Part shown: piece by piece, positions 3,965 to 30,764 of the stretch
Position numbering within the stretch: the first letter of the stretch is position 1
Layout: every line of letters starts with the position of its first letter
Assembly (NCBI GenBank): GCA_046563655.1
Contig: CM102285.1
Location: 62,001-126,000, forward strand
From: Yuukianura sp. NJ FZ-2021
Taxonomy: Eukaryota
Reading direction: 5' to 3'
DNA: 64,000 nt
The notes under the pieces: model-generated
What the model was told of the DNA's origin: nothing
Seen by the model: only the letters and a program-made list of their open reading frames with translations
The model's database searches: none
Translations under genes and position numbers: made by a program

Positions 3965-5237
3965 TTCAAAAAACACAGAAAAACTGAAAAATTAAAACTT
4001 TTTTGAACCTTCGAAAATGTTGTCTTTTGTGCTAAATTGTTGATTTGATGCTTTCAAAATGTTGCCTGCGAAGTAGAGTTGAAAATTTCGTCTAAAGGGT
4101 TAAGGATAAACTTGATTAAAACTTGAAAATTTTGAGTTAGGTTTTGAATTTGAGTGTGTGAAATCTGAGTCACTTTTTGGCTAAACTGGAAATTCGCAAC
4201 GTTTTTCTTTAGCACTTTTTGCAATTTGCAAAAATCTCAAGACTTTTTTGCACATTGGAAACTCCCAGCCTTGCAAAGTTTCTTTGGAGAGAAGTGGGAA
4301 ACCCACATTCACATCCTTATGGAATAACATTATAAAAGTTTGAATTTCCCACTCTCAGTTTCCTTGTTGTTCATGATCAGTCTACAAGATTTAAAAAAAA
4401 AATTATCTGAATGTTGAATTGAACCCACTGCTCACGAAGAATCAAGATGCCAAATTTCCAATACTAAATTTTTTTTTGTTATAAGACGGCCTTTATTACT
4501 CTCTGGGTTTTCCATGATATCAACAAAAAAATTTGGAAAACCAGTTTATTTTCTGGGGTTTTCAATGACGTTTTTATGAAAACTTTGTTTTTTCAAATAC
4601 TTGAATCCATTATTCTCAAGGCAAACTTTTAACTACCGGCACTGTTTAAATTCCCAACATTTTTGAAATAAGCGCCAAAAAAAATTTACACTTTATAAAA
4701 AAATACTTGTTTTTGGTGCCTAAAGTCAGTTGCGCTTGATCTGAATCGAATCATAGTCATTTTAACTCCTCTTCCTCCAGCACTTAACATCTTCAGGTAA
4801 AATTTTAACAGTTTTAATCAAATATTATAATACATAATATAACAAAATGTATTTATATAAATAATAACATAAATAAATTAATTACAACTAAAACTAGCAT
4901 TGTTAACTCAAGAATTCCCAAAATATTTAAGTTTACACAATATTTTTAATTTTCCAGTTTTCTGCATTTCCAGTTGTTTTCTGCATTTTCCGAAAGTTCT
5001 CGGCATTTTCCGGCTGTTTTTGATATTTTCCGGCAGTATTCGGCAGTTTCCGTTACATTTCAGGAGTTGTCTTCCACTTCATTCCACTATTTTGTTAAAA
5101 AATGGTATTTTTTACTACTTTATTTGGTATACTGTATTTTGGTATTTAATTATATACATCTCATTTCATTCAAAATTAATAGATTAATTATTATATAAAT
5201 TATTTTAATTAATTGAATTACTTTTCATCAATTGTAG

Positions 5238-6851
5238 AGTAAAACTGGTCCTCCCGTCCTGCCTCCCGGCAAAACCCACACGGTTCAAGTTCAATATGTC
5301 AATGACAACGGTGTCACCGTGACCTTGGACGCCGCCCTGCCGCTCGTCATGACCGTCGGAGACTTCAAACCGCCCGTCATCGACACTTCGACCGAACTCG
5401 ACACGCAGTGGATCTCCGACTGGCTCACCGAAACCGGACTTCTGGCGGCTACCGGAGCCGATCCGGCCGAACTGCTCGAACGGTGCAAAACCGTGTGGAC
5501 TTCGACCCACTTCCTCTGCCCACGGCTCTCCATCACTGATCCACGGTTCAAGGCGTTCTGTCTCTACCTCATGTTTGTCGCCGTGGCAACCAAACTGCCG
5601 GAAGTGGACAAGATGAAGGGCCGCGGCGGTGGGGCGAGTCAGAAGATGATCGGCATTCTGGGCAAGGTCGTTGGAGATCTCCTCTCAAACAAGTATGAAA
5701 AACTGGAAGATCTTCCAGAACTTCCAGAAAAGGCGGCGCCGTTGGTCAAGGCCCTCCATGTCATCAGCGTCATTTCGAAGCGTGACATTCCATGCTGGAC
5801 AGACGAGGTCAAATGGCTAGTAGATAGCATGAGCAAGGCACTTGGAGCAGCACCGCTACTGGAAAACGACTTTCTGGACCAATCACCGGAGACTTTTAAG
5901 TATTTGAAGCGGTACGCCGGCGCAGAACCGATGATTGAACTTTCAGCAATGGCCAACACTGTTACACTGCCTGAGAGCATGCGCAGTTCACTCTTGGTGC
6001 AACAGATCATGAACAAGGTAAAAGAAAAGATTTTTTGATCTATTCATTTCAACTGACTTAACTTACATAAGCATGCATGTCAAAAATATTCAGTCTCCAT
6101 GCCTGTAATGTTAATTATTATTTAGTAAGTAGTAACAGAAAACCCGAAAATATTTTTTATATTAGAGGGGTTTTCTGTTACTAAATACTTATTTATTTAG
6201 TCATGCCATTAATGCTAAATAAGTAAATATTTAAGCGAGTTTTTAAAAAATATTTTTTTTGTGGTTTTTAGCACATAGGCTTTTTAACCCTATGTATTAA
6301 GTTTCAATTGCTTAAAACTAAGTTTTCCTAATGCTAACAACACCCAAAATATTCACAAAAAATATTTTCTTAAAAAATCGCCAGAATAAGTATTTGTTAA
6401 ATAACATTAAAGACATAAAGACTAAATATTTTTGACATCTCTGCTAATGAATGATTTCTGATTGAATGCAATTATAATTTTAAAATATTTTGAATGCCAG
6501 GCCTGTTCAATGGCAGCGACCACTTTGGACATCAAGATGATGAAAATCAGTTTAGAGTTGGGCAACCGAATCAGCGTTCTGACGCTGTGGAAGCGCAAGG
6601 GCTGTAGTGTGGAAGAGGCGTTTAAAAAAGCAGTGGCGGATTTAGAACAAGATGCCTTTGAATTCCGCTTGCTCTGTTTGAACATTCGCGCCATGAACAA
6701 GAAGAATTCAAGGTTGGACAGATTTTTAAAACATGTTGAGGAGTTCCTGGATGGAAACACGATGCGACCGATGGACAAGGAGTTAGAGCAGTACGAAAAA
6801 AATAAGGAACTCGTCAAGGAAAAAGTGGCAGAGGTCAACGCAGAACCATAA
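5238..6851 (+). CDS. Terpene-synthase-fold protein C, catalytic motifs lost (exons 5238-6017, 6501-6851; start exon not located)
   Basis: LPLVMTVGDFKPP, WISDWLTETGL, DPRFKAF, PETFKYLKRYAGA.PMIEL, MRSSLLVQQI and VEEFLDG align with genes E/D/G; canonical splice sites in frame. Confidence 0.7.
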
Positions 6852-9024
6852 AACAACTGTTTTCACAAAAATTCAAAATTTTTGGAGTTACAACATTTTC
6901 AAATTCAAAATTTTAACAATTTTAGTAATATTTTTAAACCCCAAAAGTATGAAATTGTGAATAGAATAAATTGAGCAGTCCAGGCTTGTTTTTTCGATTA
7001 AAAAAAATCCTCTTTTTTTTTTTGAAAATTTTGATTTTTTTTTTATTATGACGTCATTGTATATTCAGAAAAGAGGTTAGGGTTTGCAAACAATTGTTCG
7101 TGACGTTTATTCGATTTAAAGATTTCCAGTTTTCCATTAATTTTTTTTGCATCTAGCCAGTATTCTATGTGAAAAGTTTTTTTTACATGCAAACTTTGCT
7201 GATGTGATAGTAGTTGTACGTAATCGGTTTATGCAAAAAAAATTGTATGTAATCCCTGCAATGCATCAAACTTTTAATTGGATTTTAAGTAAAACCAGAA
7301 TGCTTTCTCACTCTTGCTGGGACGTCGCCCCATGTTGAACAACAGAAGGGGTCTCCCCAAATACTGTGTATTGTGCATGAGGAAAAGGAGAAAAAATCTA
7401 TGTATACTAATGAGAAGGTGTAAGTGTGGGACAGCATACCATTCGTTTGTTCATCATTTCATTTTATTCTTAAAGTTTCCTGTCATCACAAATTTGAAAA
7501 AATCAACAAACTAAAAAATTTTTACGCGCAGTTTACGAGTAAGAGTTTAAGGTAATAGTTACGAGTACGAGTCGGACGATTAAACGGGTCTGTGGCGAAG
7601 CCCCAGCAAGCATTCCCAGCATGCTTGCTGGTTTTAAAAAATGTTGAGAATAAACAAACCAATCAGCAACCATGCAGAGACGGACTTACATTTTCGCATT
7701 AGTATTACAATAAAAGTCTCAACTTGGGTTTTCCCTAACTCATGTGAATTTTTACTCAACAAATATTTTGAACTTAACCACTGCCTATGTAAAAATTTAA
7801 TTTTAGGTATGAATGTATCCAAATATCAATTACGAGTGAAACTTATTTTGGTTCATTCCTTTTTATCAATTGTGAACCTGAATTTTCCTCAACTCGTGAG
7901 ACTCTAATGAAAAAAATAATTATTGAGAGGAGCCGGAAATATAAATTTCTGCAATTTGGAAATGCAAAAAAAATTTTTAAAAAAATGACTGATGAGCTGA
8001 AACAGAATAGCATTTATATACTGGAAATGGGTAGTCACTTAATTAAAACATTCCGAAACACTTCCCTAACTTGTGTAAAAGAATTTTTTTTAGTAAATTT
8101 GAAATTTGAAAAAGTTTCTCATGTATATTCATAAGTGAGCTCATGCTTTTGACGAAATTTGATTACGCCATTTTCTTGGAGTAGTTGATTTTTTTAAATG
8201 CTGCAGACGTAATACGTTATACATTGAGCATTGACGAAGGTAGACACTAAAAAACTCGTTCTGTGTGAAAAGTAGATGCGAGATAACTGGTTGTTAAAAT
8301 ATTAAAAACCAAAAAGCGCACCTAACCGCCGTTTCTTTTATTTTATTTCTCTCATTTATTAAGTTTAATTGGGTTAAGCTGTGAGTTGAGTCATTTGTCT
8401 GCGCATGTCGTGTCAAGGTCAACATTGAGGAAAATATTAATTAAACTAAGAACTATACAACAGTTTCTGTCTCAGCAAAACGTTAGTTGTTCAACAAAAC
8501 TTCTGCAGTACGGTCAAGGTGAGACAATCATAAACTTAACAACATTCAATTAAACTCCAATCACAACACAAGTAGAACAAACTATATTTTAGATTCAAAA
8601 ATGATAAAACACTTTACAAGTTAGAAATAAAAACAGCATTTTTACTAAAAAGTGATGAAATCAAAGCCATTTGGACAGAAAATGAAAATTTCTATTTTTT
8701 TTTAAACGCATGACCATTACTTTAGTAAATTGACTTCATCCGTTCAAAATTGAGTGCTCAACTAAAGATTTCGACAAAAATTTAGTTCAACTCAGAACGG
8801 CCGTTGCTCTTTACAAAAATCTTTACGAATTTACGCCTTTACGTTTTATGTTTTAAATTTACATTTACGTTTGCATTCACATTTAAACTGGGTGTGGACA
8901 TTTTTATTTAAAATTTATTATAACTTTTGAAGGAATTAGAACTTTCCATTTTTTTACTTCAAATTTGTGTACTTCTTGTTAAAGTTTCTTTCTGATTTTT
9001 TTCTTTCTAACAGACACGTATACA

Positions 9025-10268
9025 ATGGGCAGCATTTCAACTTTTGCAGAATGTGAGGATCGAACTTTCGGCAAAAGTGACGATGGAAATTTCGACAAAA
9101 TTGACTATGGAAGTTTCGACAAGACTGGCCATCTTTGGTGCCACTTTACATTAGACAATGTCGAAGGTCAAACTTTAGACGGTTTCCTTCCTCTGCTCCT
9201 CCCTCCCGGAAAATACAAGTTTCCAGATGTGCAGAAAGTAGAAGCACAAGACGGGAGTTGGATCCAGGAGTGGATTGAGGAGGCGGGGCTTCCGTCAGAG
9301 GACCAATCAGAGGAGGAGCATGCGCAGTTCGCCCGTGACATGGCCACTATGTGCGCATACTTCCTCCCCGGCCTTGACCCTGGCACTGACCCCATGAAAA
9401 TTTACATGTGGATCATGACCTTGTCGTTTCTAGGCGACGACGTGCTGGAGGGGCGGGACTTGCTTGGGCGGGACAAAGTGGCTGGCCAGGAAATGGTCGT
9501 CGTTGTGGCCGACATTTTTCGCGGGAAATATTCAAAGTTTGAAGATATTCCTATAAGTGAAGACGCTTTTGGGCTAAAGTCAATGATCAAGGCTGGATTT
9601 CTGGCTGCGCAGAAGGCTAATGCCCTTTTGCCAAACTTTTTTGAAACTTCTGCGCACCTTGCTGATGCCATTAGTGCAGCCTACAGTGGAATGCTGGCAA
9701 TGGAGCTAGAGGATCACTATGACGACGACATGGGCGATCTCCCAGTAGATTCTTACCAGTTTTTTAGAAAGTACGAAGGTGGATTTGAAGGTTTGTTTTT
9801 TAAATTTTTTTAAATTTAGAAATTTAAATTTTTTTTTAATTGTAAATTTTGAAAATTGCAGGTCTGATTGAGTTGGCGTTACTGTGCAAAGGGGCTGTTC
9901 CCACTCCGGACATGCGCAGAAGTCTCATTTTCCAGCGCATTCTTGACCTTGCGTGGTCCATCAACGTTAATATCAACGATCTTTTTAGTATTCGGAAGGA
10001 GTTGAACAATGGCGTTGGCTACAACGTTGTTGCTTACAAAAGTAAATTTGTTGAGCTGCCCAAGGCTTTTGCACAAGTCGTTGCGCATGTGCAGGAGCAG
10101 ATTTTGAATTTCTCTGCGCTGACTAAACGCTACCGAGAGCTTGGTGAAGGAAATGAAACGATAAACGGAGTTTTAGACGTGTTAGAACAAATGGTGGATG
10201 GACATATCTACTGGTACGCAGTCAGCAAGAGATACGGAGACATCAAACTACAAATTGTCCAACGCTAA
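9025..10268 (+). CDS. Microbial-type class I terpene synthase D (exons 9025-9790, 9862-10268; 390 aa)
   Basis: DDVLE (DDxxD/E) at 9436, YQFFRKYEGG (pyrophosphate-sensor Arg region), NDLFSIRKE (NSE/DTE) at 9975, WYAVSKRY (WxxxxxRY) near the C-terminus. Confidence 0.85.
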
Positions 10269-11012
10269 TTACATTTAAAATTTTTAGTTTACTTAGAAAA
10301 TTTTGAAATTTTGAAATTTTCAACAAATTGTGATTTCATTGGTTTGACTCGCATAGTTAAAATAAGAGGCTTTAGAAGAACGTTAATAAAATTAACCTTT
10401 AAAAAGTTCAAAGTCTCAAAAGTTCAGAGCTCAGATATTATTAATATTGTGAGATTTTTTTTCAAAAGTGTAACTTTGATAACTTTATTTTGTGGTAGCT
10501 AAAATTTCAAACTTTGAAGTTTTTGTGTTTTTGTCGTAACTCTCTGAGTTAAAAGAGTCATTTATAATTTGAGAATTATAAAAACAGTTTATTTGAGTTT
10601 GGAATTTCCAAGTTCACACAGAATCGGCAGAAAATGATGAGAAAAGAGGGAGGAACGTAAATGTTTTGTGCATGCGCAGACTCATTTTCTTTTAATTAAT
10701 AAAAAAAGTGGTCGCTTTTCGCACTTGCGCAGATTCATTTCCTTTTAGCATCAGAAGATTCTGTTTTTTGTGCACTTGTAAACTTGACGTCAAGGAAAAC
10801 AGTAAAGAAGTCTTTAGTGTTGAAGGAAAGCAACAAGGAAATTTTTGTGTTCAAGGAAAACCGGAAAAACTACGACAAAAAACAGCGGTAACTTTGAATT
10901 TAAAAACTTTAGAATTTACATTTAGTTTTATAAGAAAATTAACAAATAACAATTAGTTTTATGTTTATAATCTTTTAGAAGTTTAATTTTGGAGTATTTG
11001 AATCTTTGAAAA

Positions 11013-12095
11013 ATGGCTCCAAATTTTCAACCAATCAGAATCGAGCTGGAAGAAAACGGAGTCCAAATTGTGCTGGAGGGTTCGCTTCCGTTAATATTGG
11101 AACCCGGAATTTTCAAAAATCCATTTCAAAAAACCGAAAATGAAAATTCAAATTTGGAGCCTGTTCCGACCTGGCTTCGTGATTGGCTGAATTCGACTGG
11201 ATTGGTAGAATTTTGCGGAAATCTTGAATCGAGCGGGAGTTTTTCAAAAATCAAGTCTTGGTACGAATTGGCACAGTTCGGCCTTCCAGATATGAATCCA
11301 ACGGAACCGAGATTTCAACTTTTCGCGCGTTTTTTAATATTTTTGACTATTTCTGCCCAGCATGAAGAAATGTTAAAGATGAGAAGCGGGAATTCTAAAG
11401 CAAACGAACTCATGGCCGACCTGGTAGCAAATGTTATGCGTTCGAAGTATCAAAAAATTGAAGAGTTGCCAGAAGTACCGAAAAGTACAATTCCACTTTT
11501 TCGCGCCCTTTTTTCCCTCCGCGAGGATTCGAACTCGCGGATTCCAGATTTTGCCGAAATTGCGCCTCCTCTGATCGATGCAATGCGAGAATCCATTTTG
11601 GCCAATTCGAGACTTGGACTTCCAGCGATGCTCGAAGCCCCGGAAACTTTTAACTTTTTTAAACTTCGCGCAGGCGCTCAAGTGCTGGTTGAACTTGCAA
11701 CGATTTGTCGTGGTTTGTACTTGCCAGCTAACCTACGTCTTGACCTAATGTGTCAAAGGTTTCAAGATTTGACATCATCCATAGTCTATAAGGTCATGGA
11801 CATGAGAGAAATGGGGCAAAGTGAGTCAGATAACACTAATGTCCTAAGATTTCTTAGGACAATAAGGAAAGTGGAGCTTCCGGAGGCCTTTGCATTGGTT
11901 TTGAATCAACTGGAGGCGGATGTTGAAGAATTCAAAATCGTGGCGCGCTGTCTGCGCGGACTTTACAAGAAAAATCTCAGATTGCCCAAGTACATTCGTG
12001 CAGTGGAATTCTTTGTTGATGGATGCATGATCTACGATTTTCAAAAAATGTGGGAAAATTTCAACATTGAAGAATTCAAAAACCTAAAAATTTGA
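11013..12095 (+). CDS. Terpene-synthase-fold protein E, intronless, catalytic motifs lost (360 aa)
   Basis: Colinear with D/G (LPLILEPGIFKNP, LVELATICRG, ELPEAF, VEFFVDG). DDxxE is replaced by AQHEE, NSE by MDMREMGQS, and there is no RY. Confidence 0.75.
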   Translation: MAPNFQPIRIELEENGVQIVLEGSLPLILEPGIFKNPFQKTENENSNLEPVPTWLRDWLNSTGLVEFCGNLESSGSFSKIKSWYELAQFGLPDMNPTEPRFQLFARFLIFLTISAQHEEMLKMRSGNSKANELMADLVANVMRSKYQKIEELPEVPKSTIPLFRALFSLREDSNSRIPDFAEIAPPLIDAMRESILANSRLGLPAMLEAPETFNFFKLRAGAQVLVELATICRGLYLPANLRLDLMCQRFQDLTSSIVYKVMDMREMGQSESDNTNVLRFLRTIRKVELPEAFALVLNQLEADVEEFKIVARCLRGLYKKNLRLPKYIRAVEFFVDGCMIYDFQKMWENFNIEEFKNLKI

Positions 12096-12195
12096 AAATT
12101 AAAATATGTTTCTACTTTATTTTATGCGTCTTGCTACATAATATGTAATGTGAATATTATATTATATAATACGTATATCATATTATGTGATATTT

Positions 12196-12260
12196 ATTAT
12201 CGCCAACTCTTGATGTGCTGTACGACTGAAATAATTTCCATCAGAGCTTTGGTGTTGGAG
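12196..12260 (-). pseudogene. Remnant of the CRAL-TRIO gene 3' end
   Basis: Translates KALMEII vs KALLEII in the intact gene; adjacent AT-rich flank at 12150-12210 resembles 15340-15400. Confidence 0.5.
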
Positions 12261-13069
12261 TTTGCTATGGTGGAAAAACCTGTTTTGCGATTTTCATTAT
12301 TCACTTGGGAAAAGCTGATTCTTTGAAAGTCAAAACGTTTTGATCTATTTCACAACAAAAAAGGTTTTTCTTGCGGTCATCTTTTTCTATGGAGTGGCAT
12401 TTATGACTCCAAATACAATTTACGAGTTTAAAATTAACCTAAAACCGAATTCTAACTTATTTACTTCTAAATTACTATCTTCTAATTTTAGAATTTGAGT
12501 TAGACAGGTTAAAGGCTAACTATCGTTCAATTTCGCACATGTTGATAAAGCTTAATTAAAAAATTTAAGTTAAGTTCATTTTGAGGTTTCCGTGCTCATT
12601 AACATTCGGCTTATTTACATTCGCGGGAACTGCATTCGCGCCTTTGGTTTTCGCGACAATGACTTAATAATAAGTACAATTAAAATGATAGCATCAAACA
12701 AGGAAGCAAACTATATGGAAGTGTTTAGATTGTGTGATCCTGATCACAAAAAGCGAACGTCTTGTTTACGTCTTATTTAGGAATTTTTTGTTAATTAATT
12801 AAAAATAATTATATTTGGAGGCATCAATGCCCCTCCATATTTTTCAAAATTTTCTTTCAAATGAAAATATGGTTTCAGTATCTTGAAGTTTCGCACCAAA
12901 ACGAGTTCCTTCATCACATACAAGAATTACATTGAATAATATTGTTATTTTGTGGCACGACTTAAGCATAACAATCAACAAGAGAAGAGGATAAAACGAA
13001 GCTGAAACGGCAAAACGTTAGTCACTCGAAATTCTTTGCACGTGATGAAGAATAGGTGAAAAAAAGTCA

Positions 13070-13377
13070 GTTGTGGAGCAGGTCAAGTGGTTAACGAGGG
13101 AGTCAACCTTTTAGATCAGTAATTCTGTTCGAATCCCGCCTCTTTTATTGAATTATTTTATATTTATACTTTTTTTTTAAAGTTTAAACACAAACACACA
13201 GTTCCAGTGGAGTGAGGTTAAATTCAGGACTGGCGTTCGACTCCTATCCGGATCATTTTCTTTTTCAAACGTTAAATTCTTAAGACACAAGTGAAATTAT
13301 TGCAAGTGAGCTCCAGGTAGTTGGTTAACCTCCGAATGAGTTTTTCCTGGAGTCTGGGTTCGAATCCTGCCAGCGGT
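13070..13377 (+). repeat. Three degenerate tRNA-like (B-box) modules upstream of gene F
   Basis: GTTCGAATCCC near 13127, GTTCGACTCC near 13235 and GGTTCGAATCC near 13357, each followed by T-rich runs. Confidence 0.45.
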
Positions 13378-13457
13378 TATTTTTTTTCAGTAATTTCACT
13401 TTTTTTTTTCTCTGAAGATGCATTTTTGTTGTTTTCATAGTTTTACTGAGAGTGAAA

Positions 13458-14910
13458 ATGAATTCTACGGCAACAAACAAGAGGACTTGGTGTGAGATAG
13501 TTATGGAGGAGGTGGAAGGTCACACCCTCCGGGGATTAATTCCGATGCTCCTCCCCCCGGGGGCATACAAATTCCCCGACGTGGCCAGAGTAGAATCACA
13601 AGATGGGAGTTGGATTGAAGAGTGGATTCGAGAAGCGGGGTTGGAACCCCAGGGAGAAACCCCGGAAGAAAGAGCTCAGTTCGCCCGTGACATGGCCACT
13701 ATGTGCGCATACTTCCTCCCCGGCCTTGACCCAGGCACTGACCCCATGAAAATATACATGTGGATCATGACACTGTCGTTTCTAGGCAAGCTTGTTTAAC
13801 TCCAAATTTTGTTTATTTTTTCTTAACAGGTTATACCATAACTCCTTTTTCAAATTTTCAAACTTTTTGAACATCACATCTGATATATGGCTCCGTTGTG
13901 TTTGCAATTCGAATTCAAAACTATGACTCAGCAACGTGAAAATTAAAAAATTTCAAAAGAGTATTGTGAAAATCAACAAAATTGGTACAAAAGTTGTTTT
14001 TTTCGTGTTTAAAAAAATCGGAGTTATGACATAACCTCTTAGAGCATTTGTGCAAATGGTCGCTATAGCAACCTTGTTTCTAGGCGACGACGTGCTGGAG
14101 GGACGGGACTTGTTTGGACGAAACAGAGTGGTCGGCCAAGAAATGGCCGTGGTGGTCGCCGACATTTTTCGTGGGAAATATTCAAATTTTGAGGACATTC
14201 CGATCAGCGAAGACGCGTTTCGGCTAAAGTCAATGATCAAGGCTGGATTTCTGGCTGCGCAGAAGGCTAATGCCCATTTGCCAAACTTTTTTTCAACTTC
14301 TGAGCACCTTGCTGATGCCATTAGTGCAGCCTACAGTGGAATGCTGGCAATGGAGCTAGAGGATCACTATGACGACGACATGGGCGATCTTCCAGTAGAT
14401 TCTTACCAGTTTTTTAGAAAGTACGAAGGTGGATTTGAAGGTTTGATTTTTAAATTTAGAAATCTAATTTTTTTTTCAAAATTGTAAATTTTGAAAATTG
14501 CAGGTCTGATTGAGTTGGCGCTACTGTGCAAAGGGGCTGTACCCACTCCGGACATGCGCAGAAGTCTAATTTTCCAGCGTATCCTTGACCTTGCATGGTC
14601 CATCAATGTTAATATCAACGATCTTTTTAGTATCCGGAAGGAGTTGAACAATGGCGTGGGCTACAACGTTGTTGCTTATAAAAGTAAATTTGTTGAGCTG
14701 CCCACGGCGTTTGCGCAGGTCGTTGCGCATGTGCAAGAGCAGATTTTGGAATTAGCTGCGCTGACTAAACGCTACCGAGACTTTGGTCAGGGAAACAAGA
14801 CGATAAACGGAGTTTTAGACGTGCTAGAACAAATGGTGGATGGACATGTGTACTGGTACGCAGTCAGCAAAAGATACGGAGACATCAAACTACAAATTGT
14901 CCAACGATAA
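13458..14910 (+). CDS. Microbial-type class I terpene synthase F, G/D chimera (exons 13458-13785, 14084-14440, 14504-14910; 363 aa)
   Basis: DDVLE, NDLFSIRKE and WYAVSKRY intact; the frame is restored by a GC-AG intron at 13786-14083 and a GT-AG intron at 14441-14503. Confidence 0.8.
13787..14076. mobile_element. 290-bp non-autonomous hAT-like element (MITE) forming intron 1 of gene F
   Basis: 8-bp TSD TTTCTAGG at 13779-13786 and 14077-14084; imperfect TIR CAAGCTTG...CAACCTTG; paralog D shows the empty site. Confidence 0.75.
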
Positions 14911-15391
14911 CTTCATTTAAAAATTTTAGTTTACTACAATTTTGAAATTTTCAACAAATTGTGATTTCATTAGTTTAACGTGTACAGTTAAAAATAAGGT
15001 GCTTTAGAAGAATTTGTTAATAAAAATAATCTTGAAAAGTTCAACGTCTGAAAAGCTAAAAGTTCGGATTGTTTGTGAAATTTTTTCGAAAAGTGATTTT
15101 GATAAATTTTTTCTTCTGATACTTAGAATTTCAAAATTTGAAGTTTTTGTGTATTTGTCGTAGTTCTCTGTGTTATTGCGAATTGACAAGCAGTTTAATT
15201 TGACTTTGGAATTTCCAAGTTCACACAGAATCGGTAGGAAATACAACGCCGTAAACACTGTACTTAAGTAGCGAAAGGAAACTAGATTGTACAACACGGA
15301 AGTCGTGCAATCTTTCGTTACATAATATCTAATATTTCTGTAATATTTATGTTATATTATGTAATATTATATTATATAATATTTATTATCG

Positions 15392-16923
15392 TCAACTTTT
15401 GGTTCCTCCGAGGTCACGGCTGAGGTCACCGGCAGGAATAATTTCCAAAAGAGCTTTGGACCACTTTTCTTTTTTTCTGCCAAAAATGTGCAATCTATCT
15501 TTTTGTGTTCCGCTCATCGTAGTCGACACGAGTCCCAGCACAACTCGAAGTATTCTCTTTTGGCCTGCAAGTTTTTAAAAATTTATAATTTTTTTCAAAA
15601 AAACAAAAATTCAAATTTTTCCCTAAAATTTTTTTCTTACCATTGATTACATAAACACTGTGGACTAAACGAGGATAATGTTCTTCAGCGATCTCTTTAA
15701 ATTGAGACAGCAGCGGTAGGACTAAAATATAAACAAAATTAGAGTTGTGCACCGAATCACTAAAAATTGTGGTTTCAAAGTTGTGCGCCAAAATTTTGTG
15801 CTTATCTTACGCTTCTTGGCAAATTTTAAATTTTTGGTGACCTCAATCTCGTGACCTTTGCCATCAAAAATCACTACAGAGTTGCCGAATGGATTCGGAG
15901 AGTTTCGGACGATCGTTTCTAGCATCTCGGCGTGAAACATTGCAAAGCGTTCTAACCGAATTCTGTCGCTTTTCAGCTTCTCCTTGACCATTTTCCGCAG
16001 TTCTTTATCCTCGTAATTGAACAGTTCATCTGTAGGTTCCACAAGGATCACTGCAAAACCAAGGTCAAAGGTCAATTTTCCAAAATCAAAGCTCAATTTC
16101 CAAAGGTCAAAGGTCATTGACCTGTGAATCTCCAAGGCTAACCTGGGCGTCCTTGGAAATCATGGGCAATGACACGGTAAGTAACGGGACAAAAAACGTC
16201 ACTGAAATCTTCTTCTAAAATTCCGTCAATCCTATTTTCCGTTCTCCATTTCAAATTCTACAAAAAAAAAATTGTAAATTTTAAAATTTACCAAAATTAT
16301 AAATGCACAGCAACTTTGGACTTAAAATTTACCTTGGCTATGGCCCGGGCGGCATGTCTCATATTGTACTTCATTGCTACAAAATTAAGAAAAGACGTGA
16401 GTTAGTTTTTAGAAATTTAGAATTTAAAATTCTGACTTTTGTAGAAAATTTCCGAAAATTTTGTATTATTTAAAGCTTCTAAAATGGGATTTTTCTTAGT
16501 CATGAAATTTCCTCAGAAACTTTTCAAAATTCTTTGCTTTTCCAAATACTCACGCCTTCCAACTTTCTATAGCGTATTAACTGCTTCTTTTTGTAAAAAA
16601 AGTGTTTGGGCGAAGCCTCAATACGCATTTCCAGCATAGCTTAATTTTACGCATAATTTTTTTTTGGAATTTCAAAAACTTCAAAGCTTTACCGCGAATC
16701 CATCTTTTCAAAAAGTTGTCCGTTAGGTGTGGTTTTGACGATTCGTCGCCCAATGTTTGTTGAAGTGTTCTACGCAGCTGTTTCAAAATTTTGAAAACAA
16801 AATTTTAGAAATCGATTTCTTTTAAATAAGTTTTTAAAACCAATTTAAAATGTTATTTTTTCTCACCTCAGCTACAAGCGAACCAATGTTGGCTTCTGCT
16901 TCGGCTTTTTTTGCTTGACCCAT
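15392..16923 (-). CDS. CRAL-TRIO / SEC14-like lipid-binding protein (multi-exon)
   Basis: DNFLKRWIRAMKYN, LKWRTENRIDGIL, DFQGRPVILV, VVIFDGKG, EEHYPRLVHSVYVING and KWSKALLEIIPAGDLSRDLGG follow the SEC14 pattern. Confidence 0.85.
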
Positions 16924-18529
16924 TAAGGCAAAGGTCAACTTTTCTTTGTTATAAAAATTGAAAAATAATTTGTGTCAGTTTTAAATTTTGTAATGTTTTG
17001 AATTACAACTTTTAAATTTGGCGCGTTCGTAGATCCAGAGATACTGGAAGTATTTTACCAACTCCAGCAAAACCTGTTTGTAACTTGAAATAAAAATTTT
17101 GGCACCAGGTTCTCCACTGGTTCAAAAATTTCCGTAGATTTGACCTCGAAAAGTCCACGCAGACGCCAACTTGTGAAATTCCAACAAAAAAAATGCTCAA
17201 TTCCAAGTGGAAAAACCTGTAAACTTGTTCTTAAATTTTTGTTGTTCACTTGGGAAATCCTAACTCCTTGAAAAATCTAAAATTATTTCACTTTACAAAA
17301 AAAATGTTATTTTGGCGGCCTGTTTCGCTAAATTTTCCTTAAAATGAAAATAAAAATTGTGAAGAGTTAATCTTTTTTAACAATGAAGTAAACATGCGAA
17401 GAGGTCAATACATTTCAGTTCTCATGAAAAATGGAATTTCCCACATTAATCTTCTTGTGAAATTTTTTACTTCAGTTCACAACTAATGATCCTGTCGTGC
17501 ATCGCAATAAGTTTAATTACAAGTTTTTTTTAGTCTAACAAACAAGGAAAACTGCATCTTCTTTGAATTTTTTCAAATTCCAAATTATTTTTGTCTCATC
17601 AGTTTCAAAAATTTATGAAACGACAAAAAGGAGTCGCGCCAAACAAGGAAAAATTACTCGGGTTTTGCAATTTTTTTTTTGTAAAATTTATTTCAATGTT
17701 GCAAATTATAGACTTTTAGTTAAAGATTTGATGAAAAAGGTGCAAAATTGCTAATAAGTGATGCAGTTGAGAAATTCAAAGAATTTTTTTAAATAATCTA
17801 TTCAACTTTTTTTTTCAACTCGCCGGAAATTTTTTTAAACGCTGAAATTGGACCGAACAATTTCCGATTTTCAAACCGTTTTTGTCAAGGATTTTTTTTC
17901 TGGTTAATAATTTTATGGTTACTGATTTTTGTTAAAGAAGAAATTAGATTTTAGTGTGTCGTTTAATTAGAACTTGCATGTACAGAACGACAAAAATGTT
18001 TTTGAAAAAAATTGTGTTATAAGTTTCCACAAATTGACTTTTCCCACCAAAAACGAGTTTCTTAATCAGATACAAACATTTTATGGGATAAAATTACTCT
18101 TTTGTGGCATGCTGTCCTTTGTTTTAACTTTCAACCAAAAAAAATTGGAAAAACAACACCTTTTTTTGATTGTTCTTGAAAGCGATCAGGTAAAACTGGA
18201 AGTTGTTAAGTGGCGATGAAAATAAAAGGACGGTGGCAGTTGACTTTTGAAATTCCTCCAAATTTAATTAAGTAATTGCACTTAACGATCAAGGGAAGAG
18301 GATAAAACCAAGCGGAAAGAACAAAGATTTAGTCACACGAATTATTCTACAAATATCTCAGCACGTGAAGAACAATAGGTAAAAAAAAATCAGTTGTGTC
18401 ACAGGTCAAGAGGTCAATGACAGAGTCAAATTTTAGTGCAGTCATGTCAGGATCATAATTTTTTTTAATAATTTGACTTTTTTTTTCTAAAAATATAAAT
18501 TTTTGTTTTCATAGTGTTGCAAGGTGAAA

Positions 18530-19621
18530 ATGGGTTCAATGGCTGTAAATAAGAGGACTTGGTGTGAAATAATAGTGGACGGGGTTGAAGGTCACACTCT
18601 CCGGGGATTAATTCCGATGCTCCTCCCCCCGGGGGCATACAAATTCCCTGACGTAGCTAGAGTAGAGTCACATGACGGGAGTTGGATCGAAGAGTGGATT
18701 CGAGAATCGGGGTTGGAACCCCAGGGAGAAACCCCGGAAGAAAGAACTCAGTTTGCCAAGGACATGGCCACGTTCTGTGCCTACTTAATCCCCGGCCTCG
18801 AATGCGGTTCAGACGCCATGAAGTTTTACATGTGGATCATGACCTTGGGGTTTCTGGGGGACGACGTGCTGGAAGGGCGGGACATTTTTGGGCGGGACCG
18901 GGAAGCGGGCGTGAAAATGGCCACTGTTGCTGGAGAACTGTTCACTGGAAAGTACTCTACACTGGACAGCATTCCTTTTGACCAAGAGGCTTTTGGACTC
19001 AAGACGATGATTCGCGCGGGATTCGTGGCCGCACAGAAGGCGCAGGCGCACATTCCGAATTTTTATGAATCAGCGACATATTTTGCCGAAGCAGTGACCC
19101 TGAGCTACTCAGCATCACTTTCTCTTGAACTAGAAGATCACAATGACGATGACCTCGGTGACCTCCCGATCGAAAGTTACGATGACTTTAGATTCTACGA
19201 AGGCGGGTTTCAGGGGTTCATTGAACTTGCTTTTCTTTGCCATGACGCCGTGCCGTCACTGAGCATGCGTCAAAACGTCATTTTCAAAAGACTCCTCGTC
19301 CTGGCATGGCACATTTCCATTTACATCAACGATCTGTTTGGCGTGCGGCGTGAAATTGAGTCAGGGCGTGGTTATAACAGCGTCATCTACAGAACAAGGG
19401 AGATGGAACTGCCCGAGGCGTTTGAGCAAGTTGTGGCAATTGTGAATCGAGATGTTTTGAATTTTGTTGCCTTGGCAACGCGGTACAAAACACACCACCG
19501 AGTGGACAGTCACGAGCAACGCGTGCTCAGAGTGCTCGAGGAATTCGTGGATGGGCACATTTACTCTTTCCAAGCCAATCGCAGATACGGCAACATCAAA
19601 ACACAATTCTTGGAGCGATGA
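18530..19621 (+). CDS. Microbial-type class I terpene synthase G, intronless CDS (363 aa)
   Basis: DDVLE, YDDFRFYEGG, NDLFGVRRE (NSE with Gly), SFQANRRY (RY kept, Trp replaced). Confidence 0.85.
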   Translation: MGSMAVNKRTWCEIIVDGVEGHTLRGLIPMLLPPGAYKFPDVARVESHDGSWIEEWIRESGLEPQGETPEERTQFAKDMATFCAYLIPGLECGSDAMKFYMWIMTLGFLGDDVLEGRDIFGRDREAGVKMATVAGELFTGKYSTLDSIPFDQEAFGLKTMIRAGFVAAQKAQAHIPNFYESATYFAEAVTLSYSASLSLELEDHNDDDLGDLPIESYDDFRFYEGGFQGFIELAFLCHDAVPSLSMRQNVIFKRLLVLAWHISIYINDLFGVRREIESGRGYNSVIYRTREMELPEAFEQVVAIVNRDVLNFVALATRYKTHHRVDSHEQRVLRVLEEFVDGHIYSFQANRRYGNIKTQFLER

Positions 19622-20210
19622 ACAATTTAACACTTCAATTCGTTCGAAAATGTAACCAAATTGATTGAAAAAAAAATTAATCTTAATTAATTTCAATAAT
19701 TTAACTGCATTTCAACTGTAAACCTTGGATTTTCTAATTATTTGAAGTGTTGCAATACTAAAAGTAGAACGATCGTTTTATTTAACTAATATAAAAACGT
19801 TGTGCCTCACCCTTCAAACTTTCCCAACAAAAAAAAAAGATTTTGATTTTCTAAATTTTGAGAATCAAAATTCCAAATGTGAGGAAAAAGTTTGGAAGAT
19901 AAATAAATGGCGTGCACCTTTATTTGGAATTGCGAGCAGGAAAAAGCGATGTGTGACGTGAACGAGGGCTAATTACTTAAATCTAATTACTAAAGCTAAT
20001 TACTTTTTAATTACTTAGCTCTTAATTCCTAATTACAATAATATTAACAACATGATAAAATTATTTGTGTCTTTGAATGTTTATGGATTATGGATTGAGG
20101 ATGATGGATTATGGATTGTTTTATTCCACTTTATGTCCACTTGCAGTTCCATTTCCAGATCTTGGATTGTGAAATCTAGAATGTGGAGTATGGATTATGG
20201 ATTGCGAATG

Positions 20211-23200
20211 TTACTGTTCCACAAAATCCACTTGAAGTCCCATTTCCAGATCGTCCAGCTCCACTTCCTTTTCTGGATTAGTTAAAAATGGATACAGTTC
20301 CACAATGGACTCAATTTTGGTTGTTCTGGTCAAGTCAAAGTCTGGATTGTCTTGTATTTCCACTGGTTCCAGCAGTCCAGCGATTCTAGTCAAGTGCGGA
20401 GTGAAGGACGGCGTCGCTGGACCAACAAATGTCCATCGATACCTATAATCGAAATCAAAATTTTCATAAAATTTGAAAAAAAATTTCAAAATTTTAAAAA
20501 GTCCTTACAACTGGAACATATTAAAAACTTGGAAGTGAGAAAGGCGTGAGAGGTTGAGTGCCACTTGGAGAAGTTTGCAGAGTTGCAAATAGAGGTAGAG
20601 ATGCGACTGTTGCTGCGTGAGTAGATCAGTTTCCATCTGAATCATCGTCTACATCCCAAAAAACATAAAATTTCGAAACTTTTCAAAAATTTTTTCAAAA
20701 TTTTGAAAAAAGTACCTGGAGCACTTCATGTAGAATGATGGGCCACAGAGTATTGAGATTTTGTGGCGAGAGTCTGACTAGGAGAACTCGGAAGCAGAGA
20801 AAAACTTGACTCTGAATTATTGGAATCATTTGCGGCATTTTGATCGCTTCAGCCAGTCTCTCTGGAAAAATTCAAATCCAAACAAATTTTCAAAAAAAGT
20901 TTTCAAAATTTCGAAATTTTGAAATTACCTTGAACAACTGTCATATGCCTCGTGTACTGATCTCTAGGTGAAGAGTATATGACAAACGCTAGTCTCTTGA
21001 GCAACATTCCGCGTGACTCGTACTCAACTTCTTTGCTCGAAAAAATATTGAGAGACCCCGTCTGTGGAACGCTCACTCGACCTGCAATTTCAAAAAAAAT
21101 CAAATTCAATGTCAAATTTTCTCAATTTTTTTTTAAAAACTGAAATTTTGAAATTCTTGCCCAAAAATTCTTGAAAAGTTGTTTTATCACTGAACAGATT
21201 ATCAAAAATGGGCATCCAGTCTTTGAGAGTGACCGACGGGAAATGGAAAAAACTCGACTCCAGCAAAAGTTCAAAAATTTCTTTCTTCCAGGCTTTTCTC
21301 AAATTCGGGTAATTGCTCAACTTGGCCAAAAGTGAGGCACTCAAAATGTAACTCTGCTGCGGAAACCTTCAAAAACAACAATTTCAATGTCAAAAACACT
21401 TTTTTTAAAAAATTTTTTCAAGATTTTGAACAAACTTACTTTCCTCTTAGGAAGACCATTAAAAAGGCAACGATTGTGTTGATCGGCAGTCGCTCTTCGG
21501 TTGACACCCAAACCAAATCCAGCAGCGACGTCAGGTACGAATTCAGCGTCTCCAGCGTCTGCGTTGACGTCAGCTCAGATTTGGCTCTTTTTTCCATAGA
21601 AGTCGTACAAATGGAATCCAGCAGCTAAACATTCAAATTCAAAACAAGTTTTCAAAAACCAAGTTTTTTTTTTTTCAGAAAAGTTCAAAATTTTGAAAAT
21701 ATTACCTTCCCGCCCAAATCCTGGAGTTCTTTATTGCATTCCTTTCCAGCACACATCGCTTTGACCAGTTTGTAGTAAATCACAAGCGCTGCCAGCTGAA
21801 CTTGCACTGGAAGCGCAAAAGTATTTTTCACAAGCAAAATCAACTCACTACTCAGCTCTACCACATTCGAACTCTTGTCCATGTAGTGCCCCAGGAACAT
21901 CAGCAGGTTCACCGCAATCGAAAACAAGTCTTCCTGTAAAAAAAAATCAAAAAAGATTTTTTTTTTAAATTTTCAAAATTTTGAAAATTTTTACTCTTAC
22001 TTCAGGTGTGTTGAGCGGTGATAGGCCATTTCCGCCACTGCTGACTCCATTCCCGGTGCTTTGTTTTAAAAATGAATCCACTCCAGCCACGAGCGATTCG
22101 AGCGACAGGACTTTCATGCCCCAAACCAAATCAGCACCAGCACTTGGCTCCACCCTCCCAACTGCCTGGATAAACTGCGGACAGTAGCTCACTGCAATCG
22201 GATTCAGAAGATTGTTGAGACTTTGCTGGAATGCAGAGTAGATTCCGAGGATGGACGAAAGAAGGTTCGGCAGAAGACCGAGCAGAGAAACCTTGTTCGG
22301 AACGCCCTTTCCCTGTTAAAAAAGTACGGAATTGAAATTATCGCTGGAAATTCCAGAATCCAGAATTCCAGAATCTAAAATCCAGAATTCCAAAATCCAG
22401 AATTTCAGAATCCTTAAGTAAAGTAATATTGACCAGACCTTGTTATGTTGATGCTGGGCAGGAGTGGATGCTGGAGTGTTGCTGCCTCCCACAAAGACAC
22501 TGACAATATTGGACAGAAGACCAGGAGATGCTTGAACCTTCTCACTAACTACTGTCTCTTCCAGGACAATGAAGTGCAGAATTGTTGTGAGGGCGTCCAG
22601 TACTTTTCCCAAGTATGCAAGGTCACGACCTCTGGGGCAACAAAAAATAAAAATGAAAAGTCAAAATTTTAAATCGTTGAGATTTTTAATCGTTTGAAAA
22701 TTGTGTCTCACTTTGTTTCGCTGCCCAGAATTCCGATGATGACCTTGACGACATCGAGAGTGACCTTCTCCTCCTTGTAGAATCTGAGACACTTTGTGAT
22801 GGAGTTGAGGATGATGAGATGCAGAGCAGGCACTTTGTCGTCACTCAGGATAGTTCGGATGGAATCCACGTAAAGAGGCTGACGAATCATGCCGACATTG
22901 GCCGAGTAGTTTTGTTGTCTAGAAGATTTGGATTTTCCGCCACCACTTACTCGGTTGCAGTATTTCAGTTCAGATTCAAGCCCAATCAACACTGTTGTGA
23001 CCCTGAAAGAGAATAATAAAGCTTGAAACTAATGAAATTTTCCGACCACTTGTGAAAATTCAGAATTTTCCGACCACTTGTGAAAATTCAGAATTTTCCG
23101 ACCACTTGTGAAAATTCAGAATTTTCCGACCACTTGTGAAAATTCAGAATTTTCCGACCACTTGTGAAAATTTGAAATTTTCCAACCACTTGTAAAAATT

Positions 23201-26200
23201 CAGAATTTTCCGACCACTTATGAAAATTTGAAATTTTCCGACCACTTCCGAAAATTTCAGAATTTTCGGACCACTTGTGGAAAATGTGTTCCAACGAATG
23301 TTGTTTTACCTCACAACTTCTCTGTAGATCATGACAATATTTTCATAGTTGAGTTTCATAATTTCTTCAGTGCTGGTCAGCTTATCCTCACTTTCCAGCG
23401 TCGGCAGCGTAACTACGACATTCAAAATCGTTTTTGGAAGATGCAACTTCAGCATAATCGAACCTACCAAATTCAAATCGAAATTCAAAATTTCAAAATT
23501 TTCAAAACCAAAACCTCAAAAAATTCAAAAAACCTCAAAATTTTTCATTTTTTTTTCATACCAAGGAAATCTTTGTACGCATGTCCAATGAATCCATTGA
23601 GCACAATTTCTATTATCCTCAGTGCTTCGACGTGGACGCTGATCAGATCACCCGTTCTCTCCATCACATACGCTTCAAAGGATCGCTGCACCGCTTCCAG
23701 CGTCAGCTCCAGAAAAGTCAGCCCACTCTCACTTTCAACAGCGCTGATCGCTGCTTGCAAAAACGCTGCAGCATCCACTTCCAGCACCTTCTTAAGCAGC
23801 TTCAAAGCATACAGCATCTGGGGCAAGTCTGGACCTGCGCAGTATACCAGCATCTGCGTCGTATACGGATGAATTGAAAAGAGTCTTTGGTGCTGAATCG
23901 CTGGAAAATCGCTTCCAGCGCTTCTCCTTGGCAAATTCGGTGTCGCTGCAGCAGAATCGCTTTCTACCGGAGTTGTTTCACTTTTTTCTGGCAGGAATAA
24001 GTCCTTGTCCGGATCAATCGTCGTGATAGACAGGCAAGTGACATTGTTTATTGACCCATCCAAGTACGGTTGTGACATGCGCAGTTTGTGCGAAGTTGCT
24101 GGTGAGTTGGACTTTGTGTCATTGTGGTTGATGTCGCCAGGACCTTCAGCGTTGATGTCGCCACGACTTTCGGTACTGATGTCGCCACGACTCTCAGTTG
24201 ACTGGTCCAGGAGGCCCAAGTAGTTGTCTTCATCCATTTCCTCAAATTCGTCGTCACTTTGACGAATTAACGGTATCGTGAATCTTCCGGACGAGTCCAT
24301 CAGCAACGAAGTTGGTCTGGGTATCGAAACCGGTGAAACGGTATCCAGTACCGTTCCGTCGGTTTCGGTTTTCCCTCCATTTAGTACCGGTTCATCATCA
24401 GCTGTTTTCTTGTCATTTTCTTCAAGTGCCCGTTGCTCACTTAAACTTCGGCAGTCGCCAGATAAAACACTCCGGGTCAACTTCAACTGTGACCGTAGAA
24501 TTCTTAGCAGTGGCGACAAGATGACTCCGATGTCGCCATTGGCGACATAATCTTTTACAAATTGCTCACTCCTCGTCAGTACTTTGGCATCAGTAGAGCC
24601 CAGTCCATCCAGTATTTTACACACCAAGCGATCAAATGGTGCTTTCTTGTCCAGCATTTTCTTGAACTTGATCAGCGCTTCGTCAAAGTCTCCTTCTTTC
24701 GCTTTTGTTATAAAAAGTCTCTCTATTCTCCCGGGGTAACACGAGATAAAAGTGTCCAAGGTCACGAGGTCATTGACCTCCCACAGAAAATCAGCGATTC
24801 TCTCCACGGCAGCCGTCGAGTTCAAAGTTCCTCTGCAATTTTCATCAGGAAGGAGGTAAGTTATGCTGGAAATTGCAATTCCAGCGATTCCAGGCGACTC
24901 AGAAACGGCAGCAATTATGAAACATTTCAAAATGGAGTCGATCTCGGCCTTGACCTCTTCGTGACCTTGACCTTCCCCTTGCATTTGACCTTGACCTTCA
25001 TCTTGGAGTTGACCTTGGCCTTCCCCTTCCGTTTGACCTTGACCTTCAGATTTCCAGTTCCTTATGCACAAAAGTGTCAACTCGCTCATGACCTTGAAGG
25101 CATCCAGAAGATGAGGATCAGCTTTGGAAGTGACTGGAGGCAAACTGAATGGAGCTTTTTCAGTCATCTCGGTCAGAGAATTTAAAATTTTTTCTGGAAA
25201 AGACTCCGAGTGGTCCGCTCGGTAAAGTTCGTCAAAGTTCGGCTTTGCGGTGACCAATTTCTGGAAAGTCTGTTCGATATCCAGGGAACAGAGGATGGTC
25301 GACACAAACTGAGTGAGGATGGTGGACATACTGCGGAGAGCCGACTGGAGACTAAAGGCTTTGCATAAGTTGAGAAGGCAGATGAGGTTGGACAGAGGAA
25401 GAACGTCTAAAGAAGTCTGAATTTGGTCCAGGAGTTGACGACTGAAGGTGTCCAGATCCCCTGACTCCAGAAAGTCACTGGAGATTAAAAACGAAATCAA
25501 GAGACAGAGTTCTGGAAGAGGAGGTGATCCTGAGCCCGGTTTCTGCACAGACGCACTCTCCTCACTTGTGAAGTTCCCGTGAACAGCGGAAAACAAAAAT
25601 GTCCAGACGTAGTGAGAGTTCAGAGTGGAGAAAAAGATGGTTCCAGCTGAGTGGGAAGTATTGTGAATATAGATGGATCTGAAAAATACAAAGGTCAAAG
25701 TTTTTAAAAGGTCAAAGGTCAAAGTTTGCAAAATTCGAAAGGTCAAAGGTCACCTGATGATATCCACCAAGACACTTTTGAGGACATGGTCGGACCCTTT
25801 GCTTTGCTTGTCAAACAAGTACACCAGGATTCGGTAATTGTCTTCATCGTTATCACAGAGAAGGGATTGAATTGCATTGATTAACAGCTCATCACAGTCA
25901 GTTAGCCAGTTGAACAGGCGCCTTAAATAAAAAGTACACCGATTATGCATTTACACGTGCAGTTTTACCAAATAGTACTTTTTACATGTATAAAACGTAG
26001 AGAATGCCACATTTACATGTGTAAAATCCCACATTTACATTATATTTTTTGAAGTTTTTGCATAAAACCATACTTATGTTGAAAAAATGTTGAAAACTGT
26101 TAAAAGTGTGGTTTTTTGTTAGGACGCGCATAAAAATGAATTGCATCACGAAAAACCACAACCCCACCACAGAAGATAGTACAGTAAAACCATAATTTAC

Positions 26201-27639: not shown

Positions 27640-28349
27640 CCTGGAGGGACACTTAAGGTCAGAGGTCACGGAGCTCCGTCTGTCCAACGGACATCTAAAT
27701 CAATTGCTAAAGTAATTGAATTGACTAATTTATTATTGGTTTCTTGATTATTTGTGGAATTTAAGGACCATTGAACTCTAAAGTCTGTTTACCTTCTAAA
27801 CACTTTCACTTGTTGACTTTTTTCCTTTTAATTTTATCGTGTCGTTCGTTTTGATACTAAGTTGGATGCGCAAATCACAATTTTAAAATTGCGCGAAAAA
27901 TATGAATCATTCAAATTCAAATTACGCGGTTCGGGGATCAGCTGATTGTGAGTGAATCAATTGCCATTTCAGATTGCAATTCAAGGGTTTGGCAATTGCA
28001 AAATACAATCAAAATGAGAAATTGACATTGCAAAACCAATGTACCTAATTTAAGTTGCCATAATTTGTTACACAAGAAACTTAATAGTTAAATTAAGTAA
28101 TTAATTAATAACGAAAGTTAATAATTCTCTTCACATAATCCGTTTTTCTACAATCTTTTTTAATTTTTTTACTGACAAAAAATTATGAGTTTTAGGATTG
28201 GCAATTGCCAGTTGTTTCATTTGTATTTTGCAATAAGTTTTGCTTAATTTTGGCCATCTGTCGGCCACTTTGCAACTTACTGACTTTTCTGTTTCTTTTT
28301 TTTTCTCTGCCAAACTGACCCGAAAGGAAACGCATGGTGAAGACAGAAG

Positions 28350-28372
28350 ACTCTTTTGCTTTTTCCGGTTTC
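28350..28372 (+). promoter_or_regulatory. Putative TCT/5'-TOP polypyrimidine initiator of RpS18
   Basis: ctcttttgctttttcc about 60 nt upstream of the ribosomal-protein ATG; gene lies head-to-head with Dopey. Confidence 0.55.
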
Positions 28373-28412
28373 ATCAATTAATCGTCCGTGATTAATCAAA
28401 TCTCACATCAAG

Positions 28413-29263: not shown

Positions 29264-29456
29264 AACACTTTACCCTTTTATGTTTCGGATTTGGTAAATA
29301 AAGGTTTATTATACTAAACTCAAAGGTTAATCAACTAATCAACAATTAATTAACTATTCTATGCTTTAACTTCGATAATTAACTATTCTACACCTCAACT
29401 TCGGTAATCCGTGTCTTTTGATTTGTTCAAAACTTTGTGTCGTATCGTTTCGACTC

Positions 29457-30635: not shown

Positions 30636-30764
30636 CTTTGGCCGTTTGACTTCTGTTTCAAGTTTATAAAATCTGAAAAAATCCAAAATTTAAAAAGTTA
30701 AGTATGTAGTAATATTAAATACAACAAAATTCCACAGGAATCTTACAGAAAACTGTAGAAGTTC

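Follow-up and report, generated by a model that had tools for sequence, protein, structure and literature searches.

A young hAT-like MITE insertion in a tandem terpene synthase gene and the GC-AG intron that it may have created

When a transposable element enters the coding sequence of a gene, has the gene been broken or has it gained an intron? This question is raised by gene F, one of five microbial-type terpene synthase genes (C, D, E, F and G) that form a tandem cluster in a 64,000-nt stretch of eukaryotic DNA with 38% G+C. The whole of this stretch was analysed and is called the window. In F a 290-bp element lies in the Gly codon just before DDVLE, in the Asp-rich motif of the gene, which reads L-G-D-D-V-L-E. 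The insertion is real, exactly bounded and young, and it comes from a multi-copy family. As to what becomes of it in the transcript, the sequence leads us to give about an even chance to precise splicing of 13786-14083 in a useful share of F transcripts. The coordinates of the features discussed below are collected in Table 1.

Table 1. Features of the terpene synthase cluster, of the inserted element and of the splice sites considered
Feature	Position in window	Strand	Remarks
Terpene synthase gene C	about 5298-6755	+	tblastn link to D, E, F and G
Paralog D	9025-10268	+	"empty site" comparison; site at 9427-9441
Paralog E	11013-12095	+	tblastn link to C, D, F and G
Gene F	13458-14910	+	terpene synthase paralog
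Paralog G	18530-19621	+	single exon; site uninterrupted, at 18851-18865
Gene F, exon 1	13458-13785	+	ORF with start codon; from ATG to first letter of Gly codon before DDVLE
Candidate GC-AG intron of F, phase 1	13786-14083	+	298 nt; TAG|GCAAGC ... CAACCTTGTTTCTAG|G; only GY..AG register
Gene F, exon 2	14084-14440	+	DDVLE encoded at 14086-14100
Small GT-AG intron of F	14441-14503	+	63 nt; AAG|GTTTGA; common to D (9791-9861), absent from G
Gene F, exon 3	14504-14910	+	NDLFSIRKE and RY motifs, stop codon; Pfam PF19086
Target-site duplication, copy 1	13779-13786	.	TTTCTAGG; last G is first letter of candidate intron
Non-autonomous element, hAT-like MITE	13787-14076	.	290 bp; terminal inverted repeats; 30% G+C; non-coding
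Left terminal inverted repeat	13787-13796	.	CAAGCTTGTT; 8/10 letters pair with right end
Right terminal inverted repeat	14067-14076	.	reverse complement CAAGGTTGCT
Target-site duplication, copy 2	14077-14084	.	TTTCTAGG; pyrimidine run and AG of candidate acceptor
Competing GT donor within element	13830-13835	+	CAG|GTTATA; 6/9 by hand; 44 nt in, downstream of stop
Putative intron of gene C		 	AAG|GTAAAA; 483 nt
Putative intron of gene D			AAG|GTTTGT; 71 nt
Putative intron of MPG gene			TCG|GTAAGT ... CTAG|G; 93 nt
Second, older, shorter element copy	42475-42698	-	ends CAAGGTTG...CAACCTTG

All five genes of the cluster are linked to each other by tblastn, and Pfam family PF19086 matches G (E 1.6e-8) as well as the last exons of D and F. 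A family profile made from G, E and 27 library relatives, which are the near full-length ones among 58 matches, matched 86 PDB terpene synthase sequences. The best of these was 10-epi-cubebol synthase 7zrn (E 3.2e-29), and in this profile-to-PDB sequence match the Asp-rich motif of the family aligns to FFFDDVCEN. DD is found at the place of the motif in 24 of the 29 aligned family members. A homologous-protein search with G as the query gave no matches. The motifs listed for class I terpene synthases are the Asp-rich DDxx(D/E), the NSE triad NDxxSxxxE and the RY pair, and springtails and trombidid mites are among the animals that have such terpene synthases (PMC13638087; PMC6275457 for the animals). 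Removal of 13786-14083 and of the small intron from F leaves an open frame of 363 aa in which all three class I motifs are present, as DDVLE, NDLFSIRKE and RYG. The comparison of F with D gives a dS of 0.40 and a dN of 0.10, and because the ratio is 0.25 the family has been under purifying selection; the selection seen in this comparison predates the insertion.

Two further observations concern the history of the cluster. The first is that F is a mosaic. Its 5' part (13458-13700, about 240 nt) shares 86-90% identity with G and 60-71% with D; for the rest of the gene, from 13701 onwards, the values are 85-96% with D and 55-73% with G. This pattern points to recombination or gene conversion with a switch about 85 nt upstream of the insertion. 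The second is that paralog E is an intact ORF of 361 aa with TISAQHEEM in place of the Asp-rich motif and VMDMREMGQSE where the alignment leads one to expect NDxxSxxxE. DD is also absent from four of the library relatives (P0007, P0008, P0009 and P0028), and E and these DD-less relatives may belong to a non-catalytic or differently acting subfamily.

A preliminary description of this DNA, made from its letters, had reported a 290-bp insert in F with an 8-bp target-site duplication and imperfect terminal inverted repeats, at a site where paralog D is uninterrupted, and had taken it for a recent hAT-like MITE. All of this is borne out. The element begins with CAAGCTTG and ends with CAACCTTG, 8 of the 10 terminal letters pair, and TTTCTAGG stands on either side. 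The exact direct repeat is longer, 10 nt (GTTTCTAGGC, 13778-13787 and 14076-14085, spacing 298), because it also takes in the last G and the first C of the element. The duplication is nevertheless 8 bp, since the read data described below fix the element ends at 13787 and 14076 independently, and two independently placed 8-mers would agree by chance in one case out of 65,536. At the site paralog D shows an unbroken TTTCTAGGCGACGAC, paralog G has the same sequence with 2 mismatches, and a 17-mer taken across the would-be splice junction of F has its first occurrence at 9426, in D. Within the element there is a subterminal inverted repeat of 27 nt that is 81% complementary (13824-13850 and 14015-14041). 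The largest ORF confined to the element has at most 56 aa, and no transposase-family match was obtained among the 39 window ORFs scanned.

MITEs of the hAT superfamily are described as small, non-coding and present in many copies, with an 8-bp target duplication and short YARNG-type ends, and the last two features are among the criteria for the type (PMC3014272; PMC3517528). The element in F shares the 8-bp duplication, the short YARNG-type inverted ends, the subterminal inverted repeats, the small size, the lack of coding capacity and the multi-copy state, and these features fit a hAT-type MITE. The YARNG motif is found in three of the four ends available, CAAGC and CAAGG in the F copy and CAAGG and CAAGG in a second copy within the window; the one difference is that CAAGC stands in place of CAAGG at one end. 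The second copy and the F copy have stretches of about 65 nt and about 85 nt in common, one at each end. The terminal letters of the second copy pair at 9 of 10 positions as against 8 of 10 in F, and its flanks match at 5 of 8 letters where the duplication in F is perfect.

A search for related copies, which the preliminary description had put forward as a check, turned up, besides the copy at 42475-42698, a multi-copy family in read contigs. These contigs came from four public runs (X1-X4, of which X4 is organism B) and were compared over 12500-15500. Among the contigs listed, loose ends with unlike flanks fall exactly before 13787 in 12 contigs of X1, 12 of X3 and 6 of X4, and exactly behind 14076 in 8 contigs of X1, 10 of X2 and 9 of X3, each element end being marked in three of the four runs with a flank agreement of 0.42-0.50. 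The summed depth, which is not a strict copy number, is roughly 50-300 times higher over the element than in its flanks: it rises from about 93-125 to 9,500-29,400 in X1, from about 60-105 to 3,200-7,400 in X2 and from about 17 to 1,200-1,900 in X3. Because the depth jumps and the loose ends pile up, 13787-14076 is a member of a multi-copy family with exactly these ends, and the family has roughly on the order of 100 copies. At 13961, where the window has G, the family contigs have T (at least 54 distinct contigs in X1, and 37, 20 and 13 in X2, X3 and X4). This is the only site within the element that differs from the bulk of the family contigs among the 40 of 126 differences listed. The insertion is young, since the duplication is perfect and, among the differences listed, only 13961 departs from the bulk of the family. 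No match in a metagenome contig collection was obtained with a degenerate 27-nt pattern based on the subterminal part of the element that is conserved.

The same runs bear on the state of the F locus itself. The junctions are bridged by contigs in X1 (13703-13833, with 1 other letter, and 14022-14251, with none) and in X2 (14009-14205, with none), and these contigs may derive from the sample that was used for the window assembly. The left-junction contig, present in X1 and X2 at the depth of single-copy flanks, carries a synonymous G at 13733 that is neither D's nor G's letter, and because of this difference a second haplotype or strain is taken to carry the insertion as well. No empty F site was seen in the contigs of X1 or X2, and contigs can drop rare forms. 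Contigs that skip the 298 nt do occur in X3 (depth 17) and X4 (depth 428) and were considered as an empty F allele, but they carry paralog-D letters. Of the 32 differences listed for them in the F gene body, 27 agree with D, 3 with G and 2 with neither, and for this reason they are assigned to D, or to a D-like gene of organism B, and not to an empty F. A separate observation is that X4 has on 13677-14912 one D-like contig of 1,492 nt at depth 428, as against 3-5 for its other contigs. In this contig the 3' part of one terpene synthase copy runs on, across 516 letters, into the 5' part of the copy that follows, and the small intron is kept.

How well would the insertion serve as an intron? The left junction AG|GCAAGC had been read as a near-consensus GC donor, and removal of 13786-14083 had been said to restore L-G-D-D-V-L-E exactly. 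Both statements are upheld by the analysis of the junctions. Eleven cut registers give the same D-like joined sequence, and 13786-14083 is the only one of them that starts with GC or GT and ends with AG, its ends in context being TAG|GCAAGC ... TTGTTTCTAG|G. The donor matches the consensus at 6 of 9 positions (-2, -1, +1, +3, +4 and +5) and ties for the best among 21 GT/GC candidates in 13650-13899. GC donors, for which the consensus MAG|GURAGU is given, are weaker than GT donors and function where the remaining positions are near consensus (PMC3167603). The acceptor at 14083 has the best pyrimidine tract (11/17) of the 11 AGs examined. The putative introns of the window have donors that match at 6-7 of 9 positions, those of D and F having been scored and those of gene C and of the methylpurine-DNA glycosylase (MPG) gene counted by hand. 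The MPG intron has the same CTAG|G at its 3' end as the candidate intron of F. The G+C content of the element is 30%, as compared with 46-53% in the F exons and 11-30% in the four putative introns. A length of 298 nt is not out of the ordinary here, as gene C has an intron of 483 nt. Hand inspection revealed no clear branch-site motif near the 3' end of the element. The predicted RNA fold of 13779-14084 pairs the two ends, but it is no more stable than those of shuffled sequences (z -1.12), so end-pairing gives no extra help to splicing, and the proposal that structure brings the splice sites together was ruled out as evidence.

The explanation that best accounts for these features is as follows. 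A hAT-like, non-autonomous element, one of a family with roughly 100 copies, recently entered the coding sequence of F and duplicated its 8-bp target. With AGG at the end of the target and CAAG at the start of the element, the left junction became TAG|GCAAGC, a GC-type 5' splice site in which the duplication provides the G of the donor and the element end provides C-A-A-G. The candidate acceptor, CCTTGTTTCTAG|G, is composed of the CCTTG end of the element and the second target copy. In at least a useful share of transcripts the spliceosome would remove the element together with one target copy and yield the predicted junction ...TTTCTAG|GCGACGAC. The frame would be restored letter for letter, F would stay a working class I terpene synthase, and a gene family that has few introns would have gained a new one, of phase 1, from a chance insertion.

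The main competitor to this explanation accepts the same young insertion but holds that it is not removed, or is removed imprecisely, so that F is a fresh null allele or pseudogene and its splice-like junctions are coincidental. We regard this as a serious possibility, although one with somewhat less than an even chance. Retention would truncate the enzyme, as had been stated before: an in-frame TAA at 13797-13799 (+) ends the product after 113 aa, with G-K-L-V as its last residues. The GT donor at 13830 lies behind this stop and could outcompete the GC donor, in which case only nonsense transcripts would result. A duplication that ends in AGG is expected in 1.1% (from window composition) to 1.7% (from the AGG frequency in F exons) of insertions. 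The presence of such a duplication in an exon at this low expectation hints at survival through splicing; however, the coincidence is not a rare one, because the family has about 100 copies. The flanks of the other copies have no AGG bias, the consensus before 13787 ending in ACC, AAC and ACC (agreement 0.42-0.50). Loss of F could be tolerated in a tandem family in which D and G could cover its function, and the intact frame of F says nothing on selection since the insertion because the insertion is young. On the other side, the junctions fit the donor and acceptor consensus as well as those of the putative introns in the window do, and the base composition of the element is intron-like. The insertion is also the only form of F seen in X1 (left-junction contig depth 97 against about 93-100 in the flanks), which is a weak point since contigs hide rare forms. 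If F is not spliced, it is an ordinary case, the recent knock-out of one redundant member of an enzyme family.

It could also be that the GC donor is used with another acceptor, AG 14068 or AG 14044, and that an altered enzyme is made with 5 (ATLFL) or 13 extra residues just before DDVLE. Both pairs are open and in frame (46 open pairs exist among the 21 donors and 11 acceptors), and both AGs lie upstream of 14083 and would be met first by a scanning spliceosome. Their pyrimidine tracts are poorer, however (8/17 and 10/17 as against 11/17), and extra residues in the helix with the metal-binding Asp motif would probably harm catalysis. This outcome is considered improbable. Still less credence is given to the idea that 13786-14083 is an old intron that was precisely lost from D and G instead of being gained in F. 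Precise intron loss does occur in gene families, and G also lacks the small intron common to D and F, but the idea is contradicted by the inverted ends, by the perfect 8-bp flanking duplication and by the fact that the stretch belongs to a multi-copy family, the copies of which have their ends exactly at 13787 and 14076 and are flanked by unrelated sequence. Misplacement of a repeat copy into F during assembly has next to no probability: repeats are common sites of misassembly, but contigs of public runs span both junctions with 0-1 differences, the left one has its synonymous G at 13733 and therefore does not simply repeat the same consensus, and the perfect duplication fits a real insertion.

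If precise splicing of 13786-14083 is the correct reading, how does F compare with introns already known to have been made by transposons? The maize element Ds, a member of the hAT superfamily with an 8-bp duplication, was reportedly a case of intron creation by insertion in the work of Giroux et al. in 1994. In the AGGT model, which is an established one, an intron is created by a transposon whose duplicated target supplies the splice sites; splicing removes the element and one target copy and leaves the message unchanged, and the cases tabulated for it are from Zea, Oryza, Drosophila and Oikopleura, with maize Ds included (PMC3443670). F resembles these cases in that a cut-and-paste element has duplicated an AG|G target, the copies of which would serve the donor and the acceptor sides. 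It differs in that the duplication in F holds only AGG, and the positions +2 to +5 of the donor (C-A-A-G) come from the element end, which makes the donor GC and not GT. This is a small twist on the model as we read the sequence: the element's own end would convert an AGG target into a GC donor.

Introners provide a second comparison; in algae and dinoflagellates they create introns in this manner at the scale of whole genomes. In Micromonas IE1 a 5' gc or gt is contributed by the element and the 3' ag by the duplication (PMC11282704), the introner-derived introns of dinoflagellates are mostly GC-AG (PMC11282704, PMC9860276), and introners are reported to arise from many transposon superfamilies (PMC12130899). 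The element in F is like the introners of Micromonas (IE1), Aureococcus and dinoflagellates in being a short, non-autonomous DNA element with inverted ends and a target duplication, and in F too one splice site would come from the element and the other from the duplication. However, what defines introners is a family whose numerous, nearly identical copies serve as introns in genes unrelated to one another, and here one copy is found in an exon. The flanks of the further copies have no AGG in common and the copy at 42475-42698 seems to be inside an intron that already existed, and for these two reasons the family is more probably an ordinary MITE than a specialised intron-maker. The term "Introner-like" used in the preliminary description thus finds no support at the level of the family. 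On the sequence evidence F would work like the known transposon-made introns but would fall short of the family-level definition of an introner.

The MITE-derived introns of Fritillaria borealis are also similar to F, with species-specific positions, inverted ends and target duplications in an animal, but they have AG-AC or AG-AT ends and a changed spliceosome, whereas the ends in F are ordinary GC-AG (PMC11282704). In a 2022 survey that covered 835 genomes of animals and land plants, introners turned up in just two groups of animals (PMC9860276). A search through the main texts of mostly open-access papers revealed no terpene synthase gene in which a hAT-type MITE is described as having made a GC-AG intron, and this lineage, or a family like it, may already figure in the species tables of introner surveys.

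A bolder proposal is that this family has only just begun to make introns, and does so in an animal-type genome: an element with CAAGG at both ends would form a GC-AG intron in either orientation if the duplication ends in AGG. The CAAG of the element end would give donor positions +2 to +5 at any insertion with such a duplication, but only about 1-2% of insertions are expected to have one. We consider the proposal unlikely. If it were true, one would expect AGG-ending duplications to be over-represented among the family's other exon insertions and these insertions to be spliced, and F would be a fresh case of how intron-poor, horizontally acquired families such as the microbial-type terpene synthases gain introns. 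To read the birth of an intron from sequence one needs an element with its duplication and, beside it, a sister gene that is uninterrupted, and outside algae, fungi and protists few such cases are available. Should F be spliced in the proposed way, it would be a clean and very young example of an ordinary hAT-like element making a precise GC-AG intron by chance, and one route by which bacterial-type genes gain introns after their arrival in a eukaryote.

The surroundings of the second element copy deserve a description of their own. The ORFs 41066-42007 and 42915-44471 (+) resemble two exons of one membrane-protein gene, with a putative intron of about 965 nt between them (41979-42943, +; GCAG|GTAAAA ... 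TTTATAG|C), and the element copy is inside this intron on the opposite strand. The copy probably sits within a pre-existing intron of roughly 965 nt and does not form one.

Several other features of the window were recorded. The 483-nt intron of gene C (6018-6500, +) contains a palindrome of about 70 nt (roughly 6124-6195) that resembles another small foldback element. Four single-ORF genes (29460-30689, 37966-39165, 45605-46849 and 47706-48818, all on the - strand) match PF04371, the Porphyromonas-type peptidyl-arginine / agmatine deiminase family, with E values of 1e-67 to 7e-104. They are 43-75% identical to each other and are another bacterial-type family expanded in tandem. The MPG gene (61264-62070, -; PF02245) is split by its GT-AG intron, which has a TACTAAT branch-like motif in addition to the CTAG|G acceptor. 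Weak blast matches about 131 nt apart in 32155-33096 suggest a tandem repeat array. The only Rfam matches are two to the tRNA model (34273-34341 and 34450-34518, -; 30.9 and 35.8 bits), just above threshold, and these adjoin or overlap a fatty-acid-desaturase-like ORF at 33855-34319.
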